Source of the DNA: Candidatus Altiarchaeota archaeon
GTDB lineage: Archaea > Altiarchaeota > Altiarchaeia > IMC4 > SCGC-AAA252-I15
Length of the DNA: 64,000 nucleotides
Direction of reading: 5' to 3'
NCBI GenBank assembly: GCA_043800705.1
Contig: JAZDMS010000022.1
Span: 1-64,000, forward strand
The notes under the pieces were generated by a model. It did no database searches. It was not told the DNA's origin and saw only the letters and a program-made list of their open reading frames with translations. Both the position numbers and the translations under genes were made by a program. Shown here one piece after another: positions 6,382 through 18,280 of this stretch. How positions within the stretch are numbered: position 1 is the first letter of the stretch; each line of letters opens with the position of its first letter.

Positions 6382-7392
6382 CTATATAGTGTCTGACTGG
6401 ATTGTCCGCCCCATCAGCCGAATGGAGTATCCAAACATGCGCAACACGTCAACACTAGTCCTGGCGTGTTCGGTTATCTGTGAACCGTTCACCTCCCCGC
6501 CGACCATCGCCAGATACGGGATTATCTGGTCTGCCATGTGCTCATCGAGTGGGGCATCCGATGACATCTCTTCGAGTAGCCCGTCAGCCGCCATTTCCCC
6601 CACGTCTTCGGCCTTTATCCCCCTTTCCCCGAGGACGCAGACGCCAACCCTTGTGTTATCGTATTTTGCGACTGCCAGGAAGCTGGTGCCGATGCTCGGC
6701 GACTCTACGTACTGCCTGCTGATATGTCTCACCTCATGTGTGGGCGATATCTTCTTAAGGAACCCCTTCACCTGCCTCTCGGCCACTTCCTGCTTCCTGA
6801 GATGCTCGGTTGCTGTGCTGAATACGTCTACGGATTCGAATGGCCTCCGCTCGATGAGGTCGATGCGTCGGGAATGATTCCACGGCCTCGTCCTGAGCCG
6901 GACCTGGCCGCCGCCTTTGGGATAGAATCCCCGCTTCAAGACCTCAAACTCGACATCACATCCGACGCTGCGAACGATTGGGAGGAAGACGTGTTCGAAG
7001 TAGTCTACTGTGGGGCTGTGGCTGACGTCGGTCCCGCCAGAGACATCGATGATTACCTCATCAGGCGCCTTCAAGGCCACTGGCAGCAAAGCCTGAAGAA
7101 GCAGGGTAATCGAGCCTGCAGTACCTATGTTCACGCTGATGCGGCCCGCTTTAATGATCCCAGGAGAGAATGAGACCTCAGTAGAGCCGATACGCAGGCC
7201 GTCGATATCCGCATCGCAGAGTAGGCCGAGTGCTTCGACTGCCTTCAGGTGCTGGGGGCGAAGACCCGGATTCTCGCGGCCGGCCCGGATTTTAGTTATC
7301 CTGACGGGCTCCCCTTTGATGGCGCTCAACGCGACGGCTGTGCGAAGTATCTGGCCGCCGCCTTCGCCGAAAGAGCCGTCGATCTCTAGCAT
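6382..7392 (-). CDS. rtcA: RNA 3'-terminal phosphate cyclase
   Basis: Motifs DGSFGEGGGQILR, R..PGLRPQH, GSITLLLQ, GFYPKGGG, DEHMADQ, ITEH. Confidence 0.96.
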   Translation of the reverse strand: MLEIDGSFGEGGGQILRTAVALSAIKGEPVRITKIRAGRENPGLRPQHLKAVEALGLLCDADIDGLRIGSTEVSFSPGIIKAGRISVNIGTAGSITLLLQALLPVALKAPDEVIIDVSGGTDVSHSPTVDYFEHVFLPIVRSVGCDVEFEVLKRGFYPKGGGQVRLRTRPWNHSRRIDLIERRPFESVDVFSTATEHLRKQEVAERQVKGFLKKISPTHEVRHISRQYVESPSIGTSFLAVAKYDNTRVGVCVLGERGIKAEDVGEMAADGLLEEMSSDAPLDEHMADQIIPYLAMVGGEVNGSQITEHARTSVDVLRMFGYSIRLMGRTIQSDTI

Positions 7393-7395
7393 TTT

Positions 7396-7869
7396 TTACT
7401 TCGTCTCGTATAGTCTGGCCGCCAGTTTAGTGTAAAACTGCGGCGCTATGTAGTAGCCGTTTTCTATTATCTGGTTGAGCAGTGTTATTGCCTGCTTCCG
7501 GGATATTTTCCCTGACGCCGTCGCCTCCAGGACGACGGTGGTTGTTCTGATGCACTCTAGGCCGATTATCTGCGCTATTTTAATCGCGCGGGCGTCGTCG
7601 AGTATTATCCTGTCTTTCTGTTCCTCGGCCAGCTGCAGGGCCTGGGTTTCTCCTTCATCGACTCCGTACTCTTTCTTGGACTTCGGTTCGGACACCTTTA
7701 GCCAGCCGTCACGGATGGCTTTTTCTATTTGATGAGAGTCTTCTTTTCCGCTGTTAAGCACTTCATCACGCACTGCAGGGGGTATTTTCACTTGAACATA
7801 TAGGTCCTTCAGAAGTTCAAGCCTCCGAACCTTGCTGAGGCATATTAGGGACGTTGAATCGGATATCAT
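7396..7869 (-). CDS. PIN-domain protein (DUF3368-like), putative toxin
   Basis: Motifs ISDSTSLI, IPPAVRDE, DEGETQAL.LA, IILDD..A; overlaps the upstream partner by 4 nt. Confidence 0.85.
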   Translation of the reverse strand: MISDSTSLICLSKVRRLELLKDLYVQVKIPPAVRDEVLNSGKEDSHQIEKAIRDGWLKVSEPKSKKEYGVDEGETQALQLAEEQKDRIILDDARAIKIAQIIGLECIRTTTVVLEATASGKISRKQAITLLNQIIENGYYIAPQFYTKLAARLYETK

Positions 7870-8174
7870 GTTCCATCGAGCGCGGCGATATCTCTTTCAA
7901 CGTCCTGCGCCGAATACCCAGTCCAATCTATGTTGTTTTTCCTGGCGAGGTCCATGACATCCCATATGCTCTTTCCCGTCTCCCTCGCAGCCTGGCCGAC
8001 CGTTATCTCATGGGCTGCCAATTTTTGGAGGCTTTGACTGGTCTTCCAGGAGACTAATGCCTCATGAAGCAGCCGCCTCACTATCTCCGAGCGGTCCGTA
8101 TGACACACCCGCTCCACCTTTTTCAGCTCCTTCAGCGTCCATTCATCCAGACGAACCGATACAGTCACAGCCAC
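7866..8174 (-). CDS. UPF0175-family ribbon-helix-helix antitoxin
   Basis: GTG start after an AGGTG RBS; motifs TVSVRLDE...DRSEIVRRLL and ITVGQAARETGKSIWD. Confidence 0.8.
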   Translation of the reverse strand: MAVTVSVRLDEWTLKELKKVERVCHTDRSEIVRRLLHEALVSWKTSQSLQKLAAHEITVGQAARETGKSIWDVMDLARKNNIDWTGYSAQDVERDIAALDGT

Positions 8175-8262
8175 TTCTAACACCTGTATACATAATATGA
8201 CAACGTATATGAATTTAAATGCATTAGTTTCACATATTATCACGTTTTCCAGACCAAGACAT

Positions 8263-8361
8263 TCAAGACAGGAGCAAGTTTCCGCGGATGGCGCCCATGA
8301 CAAAGGATGCCCGCAGAATCTGTCCGCCGCCCTCGCCGAAAGAACCGGCGATGTCGATCAT
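8263..8361 (-). pseudogene. Degenerate copy of the rtcA 5' end (32 codons)
   Basis: Translates MIDIAGSFGEGGGQILRASFVMGAIRG, versus rtcA MLEIDGSFGEGGGQILRTAVALSAIKG. Confidence 0.85.
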
Positions 8362-8389: not shown

Positions 8390-9427
8390 TCATTGCTTTA
8401 TTCGTGGTGTATCAAGAGGGACTGGTTTCGAAGCCCCGGGTTTAATCGATTCTATCCATTCAGCCCGTTCTTCAGGTCGGACTATCCCATATCTTGCGCG
8501 ATATTCCTTTGCCCTTTCAGCCATCCCTTCAGTGTTCAGTTGGACTGATTTTCCTGGCATCCGAGTGGGATTAAGGAACATTGTCTCTATCGTCTGCTGT
8601 CCGTCTTTGTCGATTCTGATTACAGTCCTTAGCGTCTCAAGAGGCCTGAATGCGCCACCAGCCGCCTCTAGCGTATCGAATCCTTGTTGGCTTTTTCCGG
8701 TCGTATTGTCGTGTGCATCAACGCATTCTTTTACGAACGCGCTCAACGACGGTTCATGCCCCACGATGGCTACGGCCACCCTCGAACCGGACTTCAATCT
8801 CGATGCGGCCTGGACATGATGCAATACATCTTTCGCGATCATCCCCGCACTGACCCTTGAAAAGTCCCCGTTTTTGATCGCGACCCTAACGGAATAGTTT
8901 TCAGCTTCGTCCAAGACAATTTCCTTCTCTCTGGCCGGCAGTCCTTTAACATATGCTCGCGGATTCGGTTCGCCAGGATATTTTTGCCTGAGATAATCAA
9001 CCTGCAATTCACCTAGTCCTTCCGGGTGGACACTTTTTACCTCCTCCAAGTCCCCGTGGAAGAGAGGATGCTTGCGTGGGGTCAAATCTACAACGATTTC
9101 ATCGTCCGAAAGCATGGCATCAGATCTGCTCCCAGCAGCCAAGACCTTGTATGGAACCGGCTTTTTTCCCCTTGATTTTAAAGCTCCATCATAACCCGCT
9201 TTTATCAACTCTACAGTCCTCTTGCTCCTGTCTTGGCGCGTGTGATAACCCTTCAAACTAAATGATCCATCCCCTGGAAGATTTTCAGCAAGCTTCCTGC
9301 CGGCTTCGAGGGCCGCCCGCTCCCCTTCCGGGCTTAACACAGCGTTCATGTTCCCGGCTTCCGCCTTCGGCCCATGCCGCATAAGGTCGATCACGACCAC
9401 AATGTCTTTGCCCTTAGCTGAATCCAC
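8390..9427 (-). CDS. Histidine phosphatase superfamily protein (divergent)
   Basis: Motifs DLMRHG, LSPEG, RSKRT, IVGHEP. Start uncertain: GTG 9427, or ATG near 9444 if one base is missing. Confidence 0.7.
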   Translation of the reverse strand: MDSAKGKDIVVVIDLMRHGPKAEAGNMNAVLSPEGERAALEAGRKLAENLPGDGSFSLKGYHTRQDRSKRTVELIKAGYDGALKSRGKKPVPYKVLAAGSRSDAMLSDDEIVVDLTPRKHPLFHGDLEEVKSVHPEGLGELQVDYLRQKYPGEPNPRAYVKGLPAREKEIVLDEAENYSVRVAIKNGDFSRVSAGMIAKDVLHHVQAASRLKSGSRVAVAIVGHEPSLSAFVKECVDAHDNTTGKSQQGFDTLEAAGGAFRPLETLRTVIRIDKDGQQTIETMFLNPTRMPGKSVQLNTEGMAERAKEYRARYGIVRPEERAEWIESIKPGASKPVPLDTPRIKQ

Positions 9428-9471
9428 AATATCCTCAAAACCATGCGGTCTGTATAAGCTATCTCGTTGGT

Positions 9472-10911
9472 TTAATTTATCTTCGAGACGATTCCCCTTT
9501 CTGCGTCCACTTCCACGAGGTCTCCGTCCTTGAACACCCTCGTCGCGTCGTGCGTCCCGACTATGCAAGGTATGTCGAACTCCCTCGATATTACGGCCGC
9601 GTGGGAGCATATTCCCCCCTGGTTCGTGACGATTGCCGCGGCTTTCACGGCTATCGGGATGATGAGAGGGGAGGTCATCGTCGTCACGAGGATTTCACCA
9701 GGTTTGAAGGCTTTCATGTCCTGCGCCAGCCTGGCGAGGTTGTCGACCCTCACGATTCTCACAGGCCCTATGACTTTACCTGGGTTAGCGGTCATGCCCC
9801 TCAATTCCGTGACGTCTGTCGGGGAAGTATGGAATTGTCTATAATGGTCTCTAGCTTCCTGGCCGCATAGGTATCGCAGCCTGCCGCCCTTGTAATGGAG
9901 TATGGAGTATTCCGTGCGGTCTTTTATCTCTTTGCCGGTGAGTCTTTTCCCTTTTTCGAAAAAGTTTATCAGGTCCGTGAAGTTATATGCCGCCATGAAA
10001 GACGCCATGTCCAGCCCGATTCGTTTTGCCAGGAATGTTAGGAAATCCAACATCATGGTCTCCGCTCCGCCCCAGGCCTCCTTAAGATCGAATCTGGAGA
10101 GGCCTAGGTCCTGAAGCATCTCACAGTAGTATTTTAGGGTGGGTTCGTCTTTGAATTCGGAGTATATCCTGTCCTGTTTTTTTCTGACTACAGTCTTGAA
10201 TTTTTTGATTGCTGTGATTTCTTCGCTCAGGCTTTCGGGGCTGGTCTGTTCCATCCGGCTGCGGAGGAATCCTGTTATTTCGTCGCGGGACCATGCGTTG
10301 GCGTATTTCTCCGGGTACCTCATGGCATGCTTCATCAGGGCCCTGTCGGTGACGCGTTTCCCCCGGGAGGTGAGCCTGCACCAGTGTATCAGCTCCTGTT
10401 GCGATCTGTCTAATTTTGTCGACGTCATCAGGATGCCGAAATTTCGTGTCAGCTCGCCCTTCCGATATCTTGTCGAGAGTGTTTTCCTAACCACCGCCTC
10501 TAATGCGCCCGTGGAACTGGGATCAGATGTCCGATATACCTTGTTCATCCAGATGAGGTGACTCTGATATTCCTTCACTATCCCCAAGATTTCCTTGTCA
10601 GACAATTCGCCATAGTCTAGTCTCGCAACTCTTCGGTAGAACCTCATGGCCTTGGATTTCGTGTCCCTTAGCCGTTTGAATATCTTCTTGGCTTGTGTTC
10701 TGTCAAGGTATTTTTCCCCGTTCTTGTTCACGTTCCTGAGTGCCTCCTTCGAGTAGTATATGTAGGAGAATCCGTTCGTGTGTTCCCTGAAGACGTCGTC
10801 CACTCCCGCCGTCATGGTGAACTCGCTGTTGTAGTCGGAAAAGAGCCGCAGCATGCATTCCGCCACCATGGCGGACTGCCTTTGCCCCCACATGAAGGTA
10901 TAGGAGTCCAT
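9472..10911 (-). CDS. Helical domain plus C-terminal PEP-utilising mobile (phospho-His swivel) domain
   Basis: GEILVTTMTSP...AIVTNQGGICSHAAVISREFDIPCIVGT; no ATP-grasp or TIM-barrel domain. Confidence 0.9.
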   Translation of the reverse strand: MDSYTFMWGQRQSAMVAECMLRLFSDYNSEFTMTAGVDDVFREHTNGFSYIYYSKEALRNVNKNGEKYLDRTQAKKIFKRLRDTKSKAMRFYRRVARLDYGELSDKEILGIVKEYQSHLIWMNKVYRTSDPSSTGALEAVVRKTLSTRYRKGELTRNFGILMTSTKLDRSQQELIHWCRLTSRGKRVTDRALMKHAMRYPEKYANAWSRDEITGFLRSRMEQTSPESLSEEITAIKKFKTVVRKKQDRIYSEFKDEPTLKYYCEMLQDLGLSRFDLKEAWGGAETMMLDFLTFLAKRIGLDMASFMAAYNFTDLINFFEKGKRLTGKEIKDRTEYSILHYKGGRLRYLCGQEARDHYRQFHTSPTDVTELRGMTANPGKVIGPVRIVRVDNLARLAQDMKAFKPGEILVTTMTSPLIIPIAVKAAAIVTNQGGICSHAAVISREFDIPCIVGTHDATRVFKDGDLVEVDAERGIVSKIN

Positions 10912-10943
10912 TGTAGGTTATCTGGAACGACCGATATAAATAC

Positions 10944-10974
10944 TTTAAATAGTTTAACAACTATTGATAGTTGT
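10944..10974. promoter_or_regulatory. TATA box and two overlapping palindromes, putative TrmB operator
   Basis: TTTAAATA 10944-10951; AATAGTT-taac-AACTATT 10948-10965; ACAACTAT-tg-ATAGTTGT 10957-10974; lies in the divergent intergenic gap. Confidence 0.65.
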
Positions 10975-10976
10975 AT

Positions 10977-11723
10977 ATGGATGAACTTTTGCGTCTTGGA
11001 CTTACAGAATACGAAAAAAACACTTATATTGCACTAATCCAAGCCGGACCTCTCACCGGCCAGAAGGTTAGCTCAGTGAGCGGGGTACCGCAGGGAAAGG
11101 TCTATCAAGCGTTGAAGGGCCTTGAGGGGAAAGGCATGGTCAAAGTAAATCCTGTCAGACCGAAGGTCTTCTCAGCAGTTGAGCCTGAAGATGCATTGAA
11201 AAAGGTGGTCGAAGAAAGGAGGAACGAACTCCAGAGGATACAAGACCTGCTGATTCCCCAACTCACGAACCTGAAGAAGGCTGAGGCTTCGGAGCCGACC
11301 TCCGAGCGTATCAAGATAATCACAGGCATCGGCAGACAATGGGATTTTGTAGAATACCTCTGGAACACGACAAAAGACAGCATCAAATACATGTTCACCT
11401 ACGAGGAGCGGCCTGAGCGGATAACAAGAGCCACTTACAAATGTGCCGGCCGGGGGGCGGATGTGAGGATAATCGGGACAAAGAAGACGGAGGATGGCAT
11501 CAAAATGATGAAAGAGGACGTACGACACGGTGTCCAGGTCAGATATTTCCCAGTCGACGAGCTCCGTCTTGCCATAAAGGACCATAAAGAGGCGAGACTC
11601 CACCTCGTCAACCCGAAAAACGATCAAGACAGGATAAGCGCCCATGTGCAGAGCGTCGAACTGGCCAATGCCCTCGAACACTACTTCGACGCCCTGTGGG
11701 AGAAGGCCGAGGTGATACAGTGA
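10977..11723 (+). CDS. TrmB-family transcriptional regulator (HTH plus PLD-like effector domain)
   Basis: LGLTEYEKNTYIAL...SGVPQGKVYQALKGLEGKGMV...RPKVF.AV.P; C-terminal LAIKD...YFDALWEKA. Confidence 0.92.
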   Translation: MDELLRLGLTEYEKNTYIALIQAGPLTGQKVSSVSGVPQGKVYQALKGLEGKGMVKVNPVRPKVFSAVEPEDALKKVVEERRNELQRIQDLLIPQLTNLKKAEASEPTSERIKIITGIGRQWDFVEYLWNTTKDSIKYMFTYEERPERITRATYKCAGRGADVRIIGTKKTEDGIKMMKEDVRHGVQVRYFPVDELRLAIKDHKEARLHLVNPKNDQDRISAHVQSVELANALEHYFDALWEKAEVIQ

Positions 11724-11791
11724 TACGCCGCCTCGAGGAGGATGACTGCAGCGGTCGTCGACGTTTTATTCTATGAGTTTTATTCTATTCT

Positions 11792-14149
11792 ATGCGGTAT
11801 GTTCTCTACAGCGCCGGCACCCAGCCGATAAACAAGCATTACCTTCAGATGCAGCGCCACCTCCTCGACCGCGACGTCATAGGCTGCGTTCAAAAGGACA
11901 TCATCATGTGGGACGACCACGGATACGGACGATGGTTCTGGTCCGAAGACGACATCAAGAGGATAAACAAAGACGGCGAAAGACTCCTCAATCCGAAAAT
12001 CGCCAGAAAATCCATAATAGGCCAAAAGAAGGCCGTAAAAGACTACTGGCAGCGGGCGAAAATACTCTTAGAATCTGTTAAAGCAGGAGTATGTGATGAA
12101 GAACTGGCGAAGGAGTATTGGCTTTACTCTGAAGCGTTGAGGAGGGCTTATGCGCACTTCCAAACCAGCGTATCCCATTCGACCCATATGCTCGAATCCA
12201 CACTCTATGAAATTCTGGAAAAACGGTTCCACGACGATGCGAGAAAAAATTTCTCTATTCTAACAACTCCTGAACGGCCGGACCTGATTTACGAAGAGCT
12301 TCAGGACTGGGTTAAGGTGCTGAAAAACCCCACAAAGCAGAGGATTCTCGATCATTCAAGGAAGTATTCATTTCTTCTGCCGAACTTCTTCTCCGAGCGG
12401 GAAGTCCTGGCATGGGCCGACAAACGTATGCGAATCGAGCCTCTGGAGGTTATATCCGACCGCTTAGGGGGGTATCTAAATAAAAAAAGTGACCTGAAAA
12501 AACAGCAGAGACGCATCCTTGCCGAAGCATCATCAGAGAAGGCATCCTACACCTCATCTGTCCTTCGCGAGTTTGCGTTGACCCGGCTTCTGATAAAGAA
12601 CTGCTGGAATGGGGAGGCATTTCATATGCTGCCATTTTTCAAGCATGCCGCCAAGAAGGCGGGGTGTTCGATAGAGGACGCCTACTTCTTTTACACCTCA
12701 AGTGAAATACAAAATCTGCTTGCAAAAGGGGGGAACATCCCCCGGAAAGAATTACAGCGGAGGAAGACGTACTGCCTGCTACAATTCTCAAACGGTAAGA
12801 TCAAGGTGTACAGCGGCCAAGATGCTCTGAGGATGAAGAGAAAACTCCTTGACCCTAGCATCCCGAGCAGGAAGATCAGAAGATTCAAAGGGACGATCGC
12901 CAATCATGGTCGTATAGTTGGGAGGGCAGTTATCCTCAAGGAGGAGAATCCGGCGAGATTCCATAAGATGTCGGAGGGGCTTACAAAAAAGCACATCTTG
13001 GTGACCGGGATGACAAACCCCGCCATGACGATTTTCATGGGCAAGATAGGCGGAATCATCACCGATGAGGGAGGCGCCGCATGCCATGCTGCGGTCATTT
13101 CTCGTGAATTTGATTTGCCATGCCTTGTAGGCTGTAAAGTCGCCACTTTAGTTTTGGAGGAGGGGGACTTCATCATCCTGGACGCGGAAAACGGCTTAGT
13201 CCGCAGGATAAAAGGCTCCGAATACAGAAGACAAAAAAAGAAGGGCAACAAACATCGTTTGCGAAAGACATATTCGCCGGTCGGCGCCCAATTGCCGGTA
13301 ACGGAGGATATCCTGCGGCTTTCAGAAACGTCCAGAGCGGACGCATATCGTGTCGGGGGGAAGGCCGCCAATCTCGGCGAACTCGCCGGATTTTTAATGG
13401 TTCCTGACGCCTTTTCCGTGACGACAAAAGCCTACGCCGACTTCGTCAGAGAGCATGGCATCGATAGGGAGATAGTGAAACTGGACCGGATTAGCTCCGA
13501 TGACATCAAGGGTTTGGAAAGGACGGGATTGAAGATACAAAAACTCATTATGAGGGAGCCGATTGCCAAAAAGCTCACCAAATTGATACTTCATGAGTAT
13601 CGGAGATTGTGCGCCGATAAGGTGGCGATAAGAAGTTCTGCAACTGCGGAGGACCTGGAACATGCAAGCTTCGCAGGCCAGCACGACACCTTCCTTGACG
13701 TAGGCGAGAAAGACGTCATCCAGTCCTTAAAGAAATGCTGGGCGTCGTTCTTCAACCTGCGGGCGATCATCTACAGAAAACACAACGACATACCCAATGC
13801 AAACTCGGGCGTCGCAGTCTTGGTTCAGAGGATGGTCGAGGCCGAATATGCCGGCGTGATCTTCACAAGGGATCCGATAAAGAAGAAGCACATCTATATG
13901 GAAGTTGTGGAAGGCCTCGGCGATAAGCTGGTTTCGGGTGAGGTGACGCCGTCGTCGTATATGGTGGATCGGGACGGATTAGGCATCGTCGAGGAACGTG
14001 AGCCGATACTGTCCAAGGGCATCGTAAAGGAGTTGGCGAAGACGGCGTTGAAAATAGAAAAAGCATACGGGAGGCCGCAGGACATCGAGTTCGCAGTCAG
14101 GAAGGGCGGGATATTCATCCTCCAAAGCAGGCCGATAACTACGCTTTGA
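11792..14149 (+). CDS. Helical domain + phospho-His swivel domain + C-terminal PEP-synthase/PPDK-type ATP-grasp domain
   Basis: ITDEGGAACHAAVISRE, followed by VGGKAANLGEL, AIRSSATAED...SFAGQHDT, VLVQRMV, PQDIEF, ILQSRPIT. Confidence 0.9.
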   Translation: MRYVLYSAGTQPINKHYLQMQRHLLDRDVIGCVQKDIIMWDDHGYGRWFWSEDDIKRINKDGERLLNPKIARKSIIGQKKAVKDYWQRAKILLESVKAGVCDEELAKEYWLYSEALRRAYAHFQTSVSHSTHMLESTLYEILEKRFHDDARKNFSILTTPERPDLIYEELQDWVKVLKNPTKQRILDHSRKYSFLLPNFFSEREVLAWADKRMRIEPLEVISDRLGGYLNKKSDLKKQQRRILAEASSEKASYTSSVLREFALTRLLIKNCWNGEAFHMLPFFKHAAKKAGCSIEDAYFFYTSSEIQNLLAKGGNIPRKELQRRKTYCLLQFSNGKIKVYSGQDALRMKRKLLDPSIPSRKIRRFKGTIANHGRIVGRAVILKEENPARFHKMSEGLTKKHILVTGMTNPAMTIFMGKIGGIITDEGGAACHAAVISREFDLPCLVGCKVATLVLEEGDFIILDAENGLVRRIKGSEYRRQKKKGNKHRLRKTYSPVGAQLPVTEDILRLSETSRADAYRVGGKAANLGELAGFLMVPDAFSVTTKAYADFVREHGIDREIVKLDRISSDDIKGLERTGLKIQKLIMREPIAKKLTKLILHEYRRLCADKVAIRSSATAEDLEHASFAGQHDTFLDVGEKDVIQSLKKCWASFFNLRAIIYRKHNDIPNANSGVAVLVQRMVEAEYAGVIFTRDPIKKKHIYMEVVEGLGDKLVSGEVTPSSYMVDRDGLGIVEEREPILSKGIVKELAKTALKIEKAYGRPQDIEFAVRKGGIFILQSRPITTL

Positions 14150-15584
14150 GCTTTTTTACGGTGCCTTTTGTCGCGTCCACTTCCACCAGGTCCCCATCTT
14201 TGAAGACTTCTGTTGCTATTCTTGTGCCGACGACACAGGGTATTTTGAGTTCCCTTGCAGTTATCGCGGCATGGCATATGAGGCCTCCGGTGTTGGTGAC
14301 TATGGCGGCAGCCTTTTTCATCGCCATTATGAGGTCCGGGCTTGTGGCCTGGGAGACGAGTATGTCTCCGTCCCTCATCTTTTCCATGTCTTTTGGCACG
14401 TGGATTATCCGGGCCCTCCCTATCGCCTTCCCCCGGTAGGCGACCTGGCCTTTGACTTCCGTCAATCCGCTGTGGTCTCTGTCCAGGCCAAGGGTGGTGT
14501 AGAATTTGCGTGCCCTCTCCCCGGTCAGTAGCTGGGTCTTGTCTTTGGCCGCTATGTAGCACGAATATTCCCTTCGTTTTTTCAGCTGTGCGACCGTTGG
14601 TTTATTTTTGAGGATGAATTCTTCCAGTTCCCAGGGTAACATGTAAAGGAGGGTTCGCCAATCTTCGACTTTATGCCGCTTCGCCAGTTCCTTGAAGAGG
14701 GGTTCGTAGCAGTAGAATCCGTGATATTCGACGTCTTTGCGCCATCCCTTCTGCCATAGGACCGTCTGGGCGAGTTTGACCAGGTTTCTCCCCCGGCTTG
14801 TGAATTTGAGCCGATTCATCAGCGTATCCTGTCTCTTGCGCGTTTCCTTTAGCCGTTTCAGGAGATCGAGGTTGGCGTTATTCGAAGTAGCCTTCGCATA
14901 CTCCGATTCCAGCTGTTCGAAGCTCGATGGGGGTCCGTAGTACATGTAATCTAGCCAGCAGTATTTTTCTTGTATCTTATGGAGCCTCGTCTGGACGCTC
15001 GTGCTTGGCCGGCGCTTCGCCTTGTCCGCCAGTTTCGCGACTCCGACGTCTTTTATCTGTCTTATGCTGGGTTTTGTGACCTGCGTGAGAAGCGTCCAAT
15101 ATTCCTCGAACCGTTCGTCGTCGGATATCATCTCCCCTAGTTCGGCCCGTATCCTGTTTGAGAGGTGGTTTCTTCCGTCCACCGGGAGGCCGTTTATGTA
15201 TATGGCTAATACACGGGTCTTCATCTGGAGGGGGACGATCCTCTTCGCCTCTTTGGCGATCTCCCGACCGGTCATACTCGTGTAATCCAGTCGCCTCAGC
15301 CTATCTCCCGCCTTGAAATACAGTTTCGCGTTCCTGTAGAAGTCGGAGTAGATTTTTCTGCGCCATTTGCAGTCGTTCATCAGCTTGTCTGCGAGGTACT
15401 CCCCCAGCCTGTTGAATTGGCCGGTTTTGAAGACCATGGGATTGACATCATCGTGCATGAAGCCTATGAACCGTGAGTCCTCAGGGTTTCCGGCCTCTAT
15501 CAGCATGTTCGGGAAGTGCCTGGATGTAGCGCCGACCAGGAACCAGTGTGCGCCATATATCCGTTCGAAGATCTCCCAGCCCAT
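14139..15584 (-). CDS. Helical domain plus C-terminal PEP-utilising mobile (phospho-His swivel) domain
   Basis: GDILVSQATSP...AIVTNTGGLICHAAITARELKIPCVVGT. Confidence 0.9.
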   Translation of the reverse strand: MGWEIFERIYGAHWFLVGATSRHFPNMLIEAGNPEDSRFIGFMHDDVNPMVFKTGQFNRLGEYLADKLMNDCKWRRKIYSDFYRNAKLYFKAGDRLRRLDYTSMTGREIAKEAKRIVPLQMKTRVLAIYINGLPVDGRNHLSNRIRAELGEMISDDERFEEYWTLLTQVTKPSIRQIKDVGVAKLADKAKRRPSTSVQTRLHKIQEKYCWLDYMYYGPPSSFEQLESEYAKATSNNANLDLLKRLKETRKRQDTLMNRLKFTSRGRNLVKLAQTVLWQKGWRKDVEYHGFYCYEPLFKELAKRHKVEDWRTLLYMLPWELEEFILKNKPTVAQLKKRREYSCYIAAKDKTQLLTGERARKFYTTLGLDRDHSGLTEVKGQVAYRGKAIGRARIIHVPKDMEKMRDGDILVSQATSPDLIMAMKKAAAIVTNTGGLICHAAITARELKIPCVVGTRIATEVFKDGDLVEVDATKGTVKKLKA

Positions 15585-16197: not shown

Positions 16198-17667
16198 TTA
16201 TCTTCTTCCACCAGGGTATTCGAAGTCTATGTATGCCTTGTACGGGTCGGCGTATGTCAGCCGCACCCTGATTCTGTCCCCTATCCTGAGTCCTTTTTCG
16301 CCGCGGATTATGCGGCCTTCCACCGACGGGCTCAGGAGGCGGGCGTATGTGCCTTTTTCGCTCGCTCCCGTCACGAGGGCTTCGAATGTCTCCCCTATCC
16401 GGCCTTGCAGCATGACGGCGGCAGCCGATTTCCGCATGTATCTTTCGACCTTTTTCGATCCTTTTTCGCGGTCTGTCAGCCAGGCCGCTTCGTCGACGAG
16501 CTCTTTCAACGAGTAGGGAGCCGGTTTCTTGTCGATGACGGCTTTGACCAGCCGTTGGACTATCAGATCCACATACCTTCGGTTCGGCGCCGTAGCATGG
16601 GTATAGTCCGTCACTGCGAGGGAGAAGTGGCCGATGCCGGCTTTCCCCGGCTCTTGTGTCACGTATTCTCCCGGGCCGAGCAGTTTTACGACGGTGACTG
16701 AGAGGTCCGGGAACCGTTCGGGGTCGGCCTCCTTTCTGCGGTCGAGGAATTCAGACAGCGCCTTCGAGTCCGGCTGAGGCGGGAGGGCGGTCCCGTATGC
16801 GGCCGCCGCGTCGACTATCCCCTTCCAGTCCCTCGGGCTCCTGACGACCCGCTGTATCATGGGGACGCCGGCTTTCTCGAGGAAGCCGACCATGGCGCCG
16901 TTGGCTGCGACCATGAAGTCCTCGATTATGCATCTGGCCCGGTTCTTCCGCTGGATTATGAGGTCCTTGACATGGCCGTCTTCCATGAGCGGCTTCGCCT
17001 CTATGGTGTCGAATTCAAGAGCCCCCGAATCCATGCGGTATTTTTTCAGGCGCCTGGAGGCCTCGTCCTGCAGGCGCAGCTGCTCCTTTAAGCCGGGGGT
17101 CTTCTCAACCTGGTGAGGCATGGGCCCTTTACCTTCAAGCCAGTCTCCGACCTCTTCATAGACGAGCTTTGACTTGTTCATCACCGTCGCACGGCTTATG
17201 CCCCCGGGTCTGATTCTGCCGTCCGGGAGGACGGAATATTCTATGACCATCGCCCTGCGTTCCTGATTCGGGAGGAGGGAGGTTAGGCCTTTGGACAGGC
17301 GATCCGGAAAGAGTGGGAAGACTTCCACACCGGTATAGACTGATGTGCCGTTGTGTGCGGCGTATTCGTCGAGTTTCGAGCCTTTTTTTACGTAGCAGTC
17401 GACGTCCGCTATCGCCACCCTCACAAGGATTTCCCCATCCTGGCCTTGTTCGCAGTATTCTAGCTGGTCCAGGTCCTGCGAGTCGCTGTTGTCTATCGAC
17501 GACCACAGGAGCCGGTTCAGGTCTTTTGAATTTTCGCTTGAGCCGGCTTCACTGACGATCGATAAGGCTTCGCCCGCCGCGGCGGCGGGAAATTTAGAAT
17601 CGAAACCGTACTTCGCCATCGCCTGCCGGGCGATCGCCCCAAGGTCCACTTTTCTGCGGTTTTTCAT
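16198..17667 (-). CDS. RNB-domain exoribonuclease (RNase II/R family)
   Basis: Motifs SIDNSDSQDLDQ, VAIADV, GTSVY, IEDFMVAAN, HFSLA..DYTHATAPNRRYVDL; C-terminal S1-like domain. Confidence 0.92.
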   Translation of the reverse strand: MKNRRKVDLGAIARQAMAKYGFDSKFPAAAAGEALSIVSEAGSSENSKDLNRLLWSSIDNSDSQDLDQLEYCEQGQDGEILVRVAIADVDCYVKKGSKLDEYAAHNGTSVYTGVEVFPLFPDRLSKGLTSLLPNQERRAMVIEYSVLPDGRIRPGGISRATVMNKSKLVYEEVGDWLEGKGPMPHQVEKTPGLKEQLRLQDEASRRLKKYRMDSGALEFDTIEAKPLMEDGHVKDLIIQRKNRARCIIEDFMVAANGAMVGFLEKAGVPMIQRVVRSPRDWKGIVDAAAAYGTALPPQPDSKALSEFLDRRKEADPERFPDLSVTVVKLLGPGEYVTQEPGKAGIGHFSLAVTDYTHATAPNRRYVDLIVQRLVKAVIDKKPAPYSLKELVDEAAWLTDREKGSKKVERYMRKSAAAVMLQGRIGETFEALVTGASEKGTYARLLSPSVEGRIIRGEKGLRIGDRIRVRLTYADPYKAYIDFEYPGGRR

Positions 17668-17674
17668 CGCGGAT

Positions 17675-18280
17675 TCAACGCATCACGTGTATGCTGTTGT
17701 CGAGCGTATATAGCCGTGCGAAACCTGGTTTGACGTCCAGTACGCTGATAGAGCAGTTCTTCTGCTTGATATTCTTGGCTTTCTCCAAGGGCATACTGAG
17801 GAGGTACGAAAGTATCACGCGGTTGACGACGTTATGGCCTACGGCGAGTATCGTCGGGTTTCCATCATTCTGCGCCAGGCTTTCCAGAAGAGGAATCACC
17901 CTTGTGCTGACGTCCGCCAGGCTTTCCCCGCCGGGTATCGGCTTGTCAGGATGGGCGAATATATCCTCGAATATGTTGGGAAATCTTTTCTCGGCTTCCT
18001 CGTGGCTTAAGCCGACCAGGTCGCCCATCTCTATCTCCCGAAGCTCTTCCTTGAAGGTTGGCCTTATTTCGCGTCCTTTTAGCATCGCTTCGCATGTCTG
18101 CCTGGCCCTGTTGGCGGGACTGCAATAGACTTCGGATAACCTCTCGGCCGCCAGCCTTTCGCCGAGGGCTTTGGCCTGCCTATTGCCCCTATCGGAGAGT
18201 GTTCCTCCCTCTTTTCCGCCAAGAATCACCGAATTCGTGTTCGCGGTCGTTTCTCCGTGCCGGACCAATATGAACTTCAT
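17675..18280 (-). CDS. Histidine phosphatase / phosphoglycerate mutase family protein
   Basis: Motifs LVRHGET, SP..RA.QT, LREIEMG, PGGES, VGH. Confidence 0.92.
   Translation of the reverse strand: MKFILVRHGETTANTNSVILGGKEGGTLSDRGNRQAKALGERLAAERLSEVYCSPANRARQTCEAMLKGREIRPTFKEELREIEMGDLVGLSHEEAEKRFPNIFEDIFAHPDKPIPGGESLADVSTRVIPLLESLAQNDGNPTILAVGHNVVNRVILSYLLSMPLEKAKNIKQKNCSISVLDVKPGFARLYTLDNSIHVMR

Follow-up and report, generated by a model that had tools for sequence, protein, structure and literature searches.

Rifampicin phosphotransferase (RPH) joins in a single polypeptide an ATP-grasp domain, a rifampin (RIF)-binding domain, and a swivel domain with its histidine (PDB 5fbs, 5fbt, 5fbu, 5hv1; PMC4844700). 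In HpeHI, CreHI, and PpsAB, as described in PMC12167813, the ATP-grasp and acceptor subunits are separate proteins that form no stable complex; the ATP-grasp unit charges the acceptor in trans, and the reaction gives AMP and Pi. The systems presented there are 1:1 pairs, at work in phenolic catabolism in ordinary bacteria. Here, we describe a gene cluster of a Candidatus Altiarchaeota archaeon, contained in a stretch of 64,000 nucleotides (nt) (contig JAZDMS010000022.1, positions 1 to 64,000, assembly GCA_043800705.1; below, the window), in which three diverged acceptors, the products of the open reading frames (ORFs) A, B, and C, occur with one ATP-grasp domain. As in the acceptors of the split pairs, an RPH-like substrate-binding domain is followed in A, B, and C by a swivel His close to the C-terminus of the acceptor part, so that the three domain types are those of RPH. 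Compared with RPH, B is permuted, and A and C are without ATP-grasp. Compared with the split pairs, the ATP-grasp is not separate but fused behind B (it stands alone in a related locus, L025), and the cluster differs also in the reversed order of this re-fusion, in having a phosphatase and a regulator linked to it, and in its host lineage. We consider it probable that the segment 7396-15629 arrived by horizontal transfer and encodes a form of the split small-molecule dikinases with three acceptors and one ATP-grasp, B charging A and C in trans.

ORFs A, B, and C are open at the coordinates first proposed for them, and each has a helical domain of ~365 amino acids (aa) and a His swivel domain. 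In ORF A (9472-10911, minus strand, 479 aa), the RPH-like helical domain occupies residues 1-365 and the swivel carries His437. ORF B (11792-14149, plus strand, 785 aa) consists of an N-terminal part (11792-13273, plus) with helical domain, swivel (His432), and a basic linker, matched by our own hidden Markov models (HMMs) HEL (5e-93) and SWV (5e-40), and of a C-terminal ATP-grasp of the PPDK_N type (13274-14149, plus; residues 495-785). ORF C (14139-15584, minus strand, 481 aa), with a diverged helical domain and a swivel, is convergent with B and overlaps it by 11 nt. A TrmB-type winged-helix regulator (10971-11723, plus strand, 250 aa, with an alternative ATG start at 10977) lies between A and B. 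Downstream from A and co-directional with it follows PHL, a divergent protein of the histidine phosphatase superfamily (8390-9427, minus strand, 345 aa).

The swivel domain PF00391 is recognized by Pfam in all three ORFs (A 1.2e-23, B 2.9e-22, C 9.5e-25), with intact catalytic motifs (GGICSHAA, GGAACHAA, and GGLICHAA in A, B, and C, respectively). Among the three, the ATP-grasp PF01326 occurs in B alone (1.9e-76, residues 520-735 and a second stretch), in the order helical-swivel-ATP-grasp. This domain has matches in the PDB to the ATP-grasp of phosphoenolpyruvate (PEP) synthase (PEPS) and of RPH, and it keeps every invariant column of 20 permuted homologs of the same architecture (for example, K524, R614, E620, D621, Q630, D764, E766, Q778, and R780). 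PEPS as well as pyruvate phosphate dikinase (PPDK) have in common with the cluster the ATP-grasp, the swivel, and the motif GGxx[CS]HAA, but their PEP/pyruvate TIM barrel (PF02896) has no Pfam match at E <= 0.01 in any of the three ORFs. The preliminary description of this DNA, made from the letters alone, had seen three genes with a helical and an intact swivel domain, a single ATP-grasp gene, no pyruvate TIM barrel, and a TrmB regulator in the middle, and these points all hold. The swivel motifs it quoted (GGICSHAAVISRE in A, GGAACHAAVISRE in B, and GGLICHAAITARE in C) are present in the translations, as are the helical ones (NFGILMT/NFSILTT and EIKDRTEY/ELQRRKTY/QLKKRREY).

The helical domains had also been taken for divergent paralogs, and this is borne out in two ways. 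A and B are paralogous by BLAST across the entire helical-plus-swivel portion (450 aa, 29% identity, E 9e-57). With C, the BLAST match to A and B begins only at about residue 295; its N-terminal domain is recovered over 277 columns with a family profile of 69 sequences built without C (hhalign probability 97.3%, E 1.9e-11).

A search with the helical domain of A among 1.84 billion cluster representatives yields only 210 proteins at E <= 0.001. Most of them are helical-plus-swivel proteins of ~480 aa; some, of ~800 aa, have the domain in the center and some have it at the N-terminus. The AlphaFold (AF2) model of A, computed with a 70-row alignment, has a pLDDT of 95.6 and a pTM of 0.93. With Foldseek against the PDB, the top six matches of this model are Listeria RPH (best 5fbu, E 2.6e-13, TMq 0.59; TMq 0.54-0.59 for the first four; 13% identity), and the remaining ones (PPDK, pyruvate kinase, etc.) concern the swivel only (TMq ~0.2). 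In this comparison of a predicted model, the RIF-binding domain of RPH is the sole structural relative of the helical domain of A, in line with the resemblance to RPH envisaged in the preliminary description. Since the account of the RPH structures in PMC4844700 reports no structural homologue of that domain, the match is specific. The family profile aligns with residues 698-866 of the RPH sequence, ~70 residues past the swivel. Separately, R273 and K277 of A (~10081-10095, minus strand) form an R-x3-K pair, which shows no or almost no variation across the family. Its spacing is that of the phosphate-binding Arg666 and Lys670 of RPH (PMC4844700), a likeness by spacing alone and not by alignment, which we mention as a lead.

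At the level of families, the distance to the characterized enzymes is large. The NCBIfam RPH models (NF041857 / NF000283) give 258 bits for B and ~62 for A and C, against a cut-off of 999. The PEPS model TIGR01418 gives 312 bits (cut-off 740), and the PpsA-like PRK08296 group gives at best 92.3 bits (cut-off 578), in the swivel region only. The prodiginine-condensing enzymes PigC, RedH, and HapC share ATP-grasp and swivel with the cluster but are single polypeptides for a biosynthetic condensation (PMC13534948); their models reach 269 bits, against 1350, over these two domains only. With all these scores far under the cut-offs, A, B, and C fall outside those families; they would operate like RPH, PigC, PEPS, or PpsA-type enzymes without being members of any of them.

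The one-to-many layout recurs in related loci. Alignment A3, restricted to the helical domain, gave no conserved stretch; alignment A4 was therefore used, so that the search patterns derive from the swivel domain. It led to 588 relatives, of which the best 80 loci were kept, and our own HMMs for the helical, swivel, and ATP-grasp domains were run on their stop-to-stop frames. These loci belong mostly to bacteria of the candidate phyla radiation (CPR) and to DPANN archaea; the taxa include Altiarchaeota, Woesearchaeota, Micrarchaeota, Nanoarchaeota, Iainarchaeum, many Patescibacteria/CPR, and a few other metagenome-assembled genomes (MAGs). They contain 307 swivel domains vs. 30 ATP-grasp ORFs (19 stand-alone and 11 fused), and in none of the 80 do two ATP-grasps occur. 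At least two swivel domains are found in 59 loci, at least three in 43, and at least five in 26, the densest array having 12 in 21.8 kb (L045). In five whole genomes (1.0-1.5 Mb), 10, 9, 17, 14, and 14 swivel matches correspond to 1, 2, 3, 2, and 2 ATP-grasp-bearing frames. In the first of them (G061), the only ATP-grasp is stand-alone and sits at the end of an array, and a triad TrmB/A-type/PHL (L023) lies on another contig. In the main texts of the literature (as distinct from supplementary tables), we found no description of swivel arrays or of a one-to-many layout in CPR or DPANN. A Nanoarchaeota MAG (L072:5594-19939, plus strand) shows a frame of 4782 codons, free of stops and Ns, in which one ATP-grasp and ten swivel domains stand in a row as parts of a single giant protein.

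The locus L025, from an uncultured archaeon, contains in one direction an ortholog of B (46% identity over 486 aa, without ATP-grasp fusion), an ortholog of C (481 aa aligned, 50% identity), the third swivel protein of the series, and a stand-alone ATP-grasp with 38.5% identity to residues 503-785 of B. In view of this gene order, the permuted order of B is most simply explained if an acceptor gene became fused to the charger gene downstream of it. Fusions are found in both orders. We scored 247 family rows in which a complete helical domain adjoins a swivel: 207 have no ATP-grasp, 21 have it at the N-terminus, and 19 at the C-terminus, with the reservation that truncated metagenome proteins are perhaps scored as unfused. 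In a quick FastTree tree of the 242 distinct rows, with several long branches, A, B, and C fall in separate well-supported clades, and at least 26 changes of architecture are needed. The A clade (six rows) includes one N-terminally fused form, and the B clade (nine rows) has three C-fused and six unfused forms.

The contact between charger and acceptor was modeled with residues 495-785 of B, residues 362-479 of A, ATP, and Mg, next to three controls. The predicted complex scores 0.64 and the best control 0.01. The mark used is reached by 58 of 80 solved complexes and by two of 110 mismatched pairs, counts that apply only roughly to the B/A complex because it was computed with alignments and ligands of our own. 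At least 98% of the contacts are common to the three runs, in which the partner pLDDT is at least 82 and the His437 loop of A (431-441) lies against residues 688-691, 702-704, 713-722, and D764 of B. Since contacts between swivel and ATP-grasp have already been solved in cis (in PPDK, PEPS, and RPH), this prediction speaks of likeness and not of binding. The preliminary description had proposed that one ATP-grasp charges all three His domains. The fold of A, the predicted complex, and the linkage of swivel-only homologs to single ATP-grasps (in arrays, in fusions of both orders, and in whole-genome counts) all point in that direction, and these computational results leave the shared charger, as a whole, partly supported.

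The reaction could proceed as follows. ATP would be bound by the C-terminal ATP-grasp of B, which would pyrophosphorylate its own swivel His and, through transient docking, the swivel His of A and of C. After loss of the gamma-phosphate, the phospho-His swivel would swing onto its own RPH-like helical domain, and each acceptor would phosphorylate a different small molecule (X-OH + ATP + H2O -> X-O-P + AMP + Pi). PHL, in the same operon as A, might hydrolyze either the phosphorylated product or the phospho-His, and the TrmB-type regulator would control the divergent transcription units A-PHL and TrmB-B. For the charging in trans, HpeHI, CreHI, and PpsAB offer a direct biochemical precedent (PMC12167813).

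Several observations weigh against a charger shared in this way. B could act purely in cis. In 50 of the 80 loci, there is no ATP-grasp inside the fetched span, so that the physical linkage is frequent and not universal, and the 80 loci, selected for swivel motifs and for their resemblance to A, are a biased sample. The source genome holds two more ATP-grasps, in a PEP-synthase-like frame (C4) and in a PPDK-like frame (C25), which might in principle serve A and C as chargers. By itself, HpeH moves phosphate, from 4-phosphoacetophenone to acetovanillone, and this phosphoryl exchange implies that an acceptor module may act without ATP-grasp (PMC12167813). The score of the predicted complex may echo the solved PPDK, PEPS, and RPH structures. 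The linkage to TrmB is uneven: compared by hand, three genomes (G062, G064, and G065) have no TrmB gene within 10 kb of a swivel gene. Lastly, in two DNA metagenome runs (shares 0.15 and 0.05), contigs of at most 681 nt cover parts of A, TrmB, B, and C with 90-99% likeness, and no independent contig bridges the junctions of the island; such short contigs are no evidence either way on expression or assembly.

Part of these observations could be accommodated if B were a self-contained cis dikinase, with A and C acting as ATP-independent phosphotransferases (as the exchange catalyzed by HpeH would allow, and as would suit the swivel genes without ATP-grasp in the fetched span) or charged by the ATP-grasp of the housekeeping PEPS or PPDK, for which the two other frames of the source genome are at hand. 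Those PEPS and PPDK frames, however, have a swivel domain of their own. The ATP-grasp has been fused to the family in both orders, with repeated gain and loss, the ortholog of C shares an operon with a stand-alone ATP-grasp in L025, and the ten swivel matches of G061 have as partner a single stand-alone ATP-grasp at the array end. On balance, we consider this alternative, with a purely cis-acting B, unlikely.

A histidine phosphatase had been placed after A in the preliminary description. PHL (called product P0267) was drawn in a mechanical frame that extends to 9610; its start is probably not there but at the GTG at 9427, 45 nt after the stop of ORF A. On its own, PHL stays under the Pfam threshold for His_Phos_1 (E 0.11-0.14; 12.6 bits vs. 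a gathering cut-off of 21.7); it has nothing significant in sequence searches of Pfam and PDB, and a word-indexed search of 5.8 billion proteins returns only PHL itself. With phmmer on the fetched loci, on the other hand, five homologs are found (a further hit, L072:11635-12120, did not align and was dropped). In the RHG motif, R17 and H18 are the same in all six sequences, and three of the six match His_Phos_1 (best E 1.1e-6). The AF2 model of PHL (pLDDT 75.3) has a confident core and low confidence at 99-136, a long insert, and at 315-345. With Foldseek, this model comes closest to histidine acid phosphatases (7doq, E 7.4e-9, TMq 0.46) and next to PGAM and TIGAR. Thus, the RHG motif and the fold are those of the histidine phosphatase superfamily (histidine acid phosphatases, PGAM, SixA), from which PHL differs by its score under the Pfam cut-off and by the long low-confidence insert.

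Phosphatase partners recur near the relatives. All non-swivel neighbors in the 80 loci were clustered, and one or two representatives of each phosphatase cluster were checked by Pfam. HAD-type clusters are present in 10 loci, LMWPc-like ones in seven, His_Phos_1-like ones in seven (a mixed cluster, one of two tested members, L059:7959-8948, being without a Pfam match), and PHL homologs in seven. At least one of these types occurs in 23 of the 80 loci, which makes a phosphatase partner a recurrent feature, and in 18 no more than 300 nt separate it from a swivel or ATP-grasp frame. The order TrmB/A-type/PHL of the window is found again in L023, and in L029, from another Altiarchaeote, PHL follows a permuted B-like protein. 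LMWPc-like genes are often directly upstream of an A-type gene. PHL itself may act on the phosphorylated product or on phospho-His.

Phosphatases of four kinds at such short distances could also be expected of a phospho-His relay for signaling or protein modification, in which the helical domains would bind proteins or polymers and the phosphatases would reset the phospho-His. SixA, a His_Phos_1 member, is a phospho-His phosphatase. Alpha-glucan, water dikinase presents the order of ORF B (substrate part, His domain, and C-terminal nucleotide-binding domain) and works with dedicated phosphatases; its substrate, however, is a polymer held by carbohydrate-binding modules, and a Pfam scan of the cluster proteins detects neither a carbohydrate-binding nor a protein-interaction domain. 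Moreover, the ligand of the helical domain's sole structural relative is a small molecule, and the characterized relatives (RPH, HpeHI, CreHI, PpsAB, and PigC/HapC) are all small-molecule enzymes in the accounts given of them (PMC4844700, PMC12167813, PMC13534948). A relay of this kind thus seems very unlikely.

Less likely still is an island for the inactivation of antibiotics, with RPH-type resistance and a different antibiotic for each module. It would fit the fold, which is closest to RPH, the horizontal acquisition, and the patchy distribution. But the NCBIfam RPH scores are far under the cut-off for all three ORFs, the identity to RPH is 13%, and other family members are catabolic or biosynthetic according to PMC12167813; in addition, the linked phosphatase, if acting on the product, would reverse the inactivation. 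The very improbable view of A and C as decaying, functionless leftovers of a transferred array, to which the rearrangement relative to L025 (C inverted, B fused) and the gene-fragment scar on the island (see below) could be related, conflicts with the three intact frames and catalytic motifs, with the presence in A of all positions listed as invariant or nearly so for alignments A1 and A2, and with the full-length orthologs at 50% identity.

Within the reading preferred here, of one charger for three acceptors, the cluster forms an island that an Altiarchaeota-type genome acquired horizontally. The source genome is metagenome-assembled (2.0 Mb, 43 contigs), and the set contains 61 genomes of its phylum. 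The helical family is present in three of the 61 and in none of the four other genomes of the same genus; the titles of the best related loci are Altiarchaeota. RtcA is found in 13 of 20 family relatives, and the four best RtcA regions (one pair from the same genus, the other from the same family) were compared with the window. In all four, rtcA lies next to tmk in divergent orientation, and an HD gene abuts tmk. From the first adjacency, the segment 7396-15629 is an insertion; it contains a PIN-like/UPF0175-like gene pair, a 5' fragment of rtcA, PHL, A, TrmB, B, and C. From the second, 16198-18280, between tmk and the HD gene, is another insertion, with an exonuclease of the RNB-domain type and a genuine His_Phos_1 gene (17675-18280, E 1.1e-52). 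The GC content of the cluster is 51.1%, vs. 55.4% for the genome (7.7th percentile of 1716 windows), and that of 7396-8303 is 49.6%.

The rtcA fragment (8287-8361, minus strand), between the gene pair and PHL, is a direct repeat of 75 nt, 76% identical to the true rtcA start (7318-7392, minus strand). It has 25 RtcA-like codons, followed by divergence and a stop, and resembles a scar of recombination, derived from a different rtcA allele. It is the only notable repeat at the borders of the island, where we saw no long flanking direct repeats, no integrase, and no tRNA.

The TrmB-type regulator matches PF01978 with 75.5 bits (3e-21; cut-off 25.6) and is the sole match over the cut-off in the source genome (87.6% complete). 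DUF7436 is weak (26 bits vs. a cut-off of 34.2), the sugar-binding effector domain of TrmB proper has no Pfam match in it, and the NCBIfam TrmB equivalogs give 44-53 bits vs. cut-offs of 500-650; PDB TrmB and TrmBL2 align to residues 4-119 only. TrmB-like regulators are the commonest neighbor family in the related loci (16 of 80). In five other genomes, ~8 of ~30 TrmB genes lie within 7 kb of a swivel gene, vs. ~3 expected by chance in a rough comparison by hand; seven of these eight sit in one Woesearchaeota genome. The link between TrmB and swivel genes is real in places and not universal.

The divergent intergenic region between A and TrmB (59 nt) contains a perfect palindrome, AATAGTT-TAAC-AACTATT (10948-10965), ~6 nt upstream of the TrmB start, which we note as a weak candidate for an operator. 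The pattern AATAGTT-N4-AACTATT has one match in the window, with 0.09 expected; at least one match occurs in nine of 100 shuffles, which makes the palindrome only a lead.

Tentatively, one ATP-grasp charger with interchangeable acceptors, each having a separate pocket, could be seen as a modular and horizontally mobile platform for the phosphorylation of many different small molecules, with its own regulator and phosphatase. It might serve, for example, in trapping scavenged metabolites in the cell or in neutralizing foreign compounds, might account for up to ~1% of the genes in ultra-small CPR/DPANN genomes, and would have been transferred here into an Altiarchaeote. Split small-molecule dikinases have been recognized only recently, and as 1:1 pairs for aromatic catabolism only; phosphotransfer in trans from one to many, if true, would be a new organizational principle for dikinases. 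Charging several acceptors with one ATP unit would be a compact route to many kinases from one energy module, and it would account for an extensive gene family that lacks annotation in the smallest genomes known. The window offers a small and tractable case, in which a single charger, a single phosphatase, and a single regulator go with three acceptors, on an island that presents the kit as moving between lineages. The identity of the substrates would tell what these organisms take from their surroundings, or defend against in them.

At the edge of the island, two ORFs overlap by 4 nt in the manner of a toxin-antitoxin pair. The first gene of the insertion, a PIN-like/DUF3368-like candidate toxin (7396-7869, minus strand), has matches below the cut-offs to DUF3368 (2.2e-5) and PIN-TPR-GreABC (4.2e-3). 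The second, a UPF0175/ribbon-helix-helix-like candidate antitoxin (7866-8303, minus strand), has matches to UPF0175 (1e-4) and RHH_1 (7e-4), also below the cut-offs.

A fourth swivel-only protein of the source genome, on contig C32 (L001:1046-2425, minus strand, 459 aa, motif GGRLAHAA), was left out of the system. Its N-terminal domain shows no detectable relationship with the A/B/C family (hhalign probability 0.5%; no phmmer hit in the 80 loci). This gene adjoins an eIF-2B-like gene, with proteasome and exosome genes nearby.

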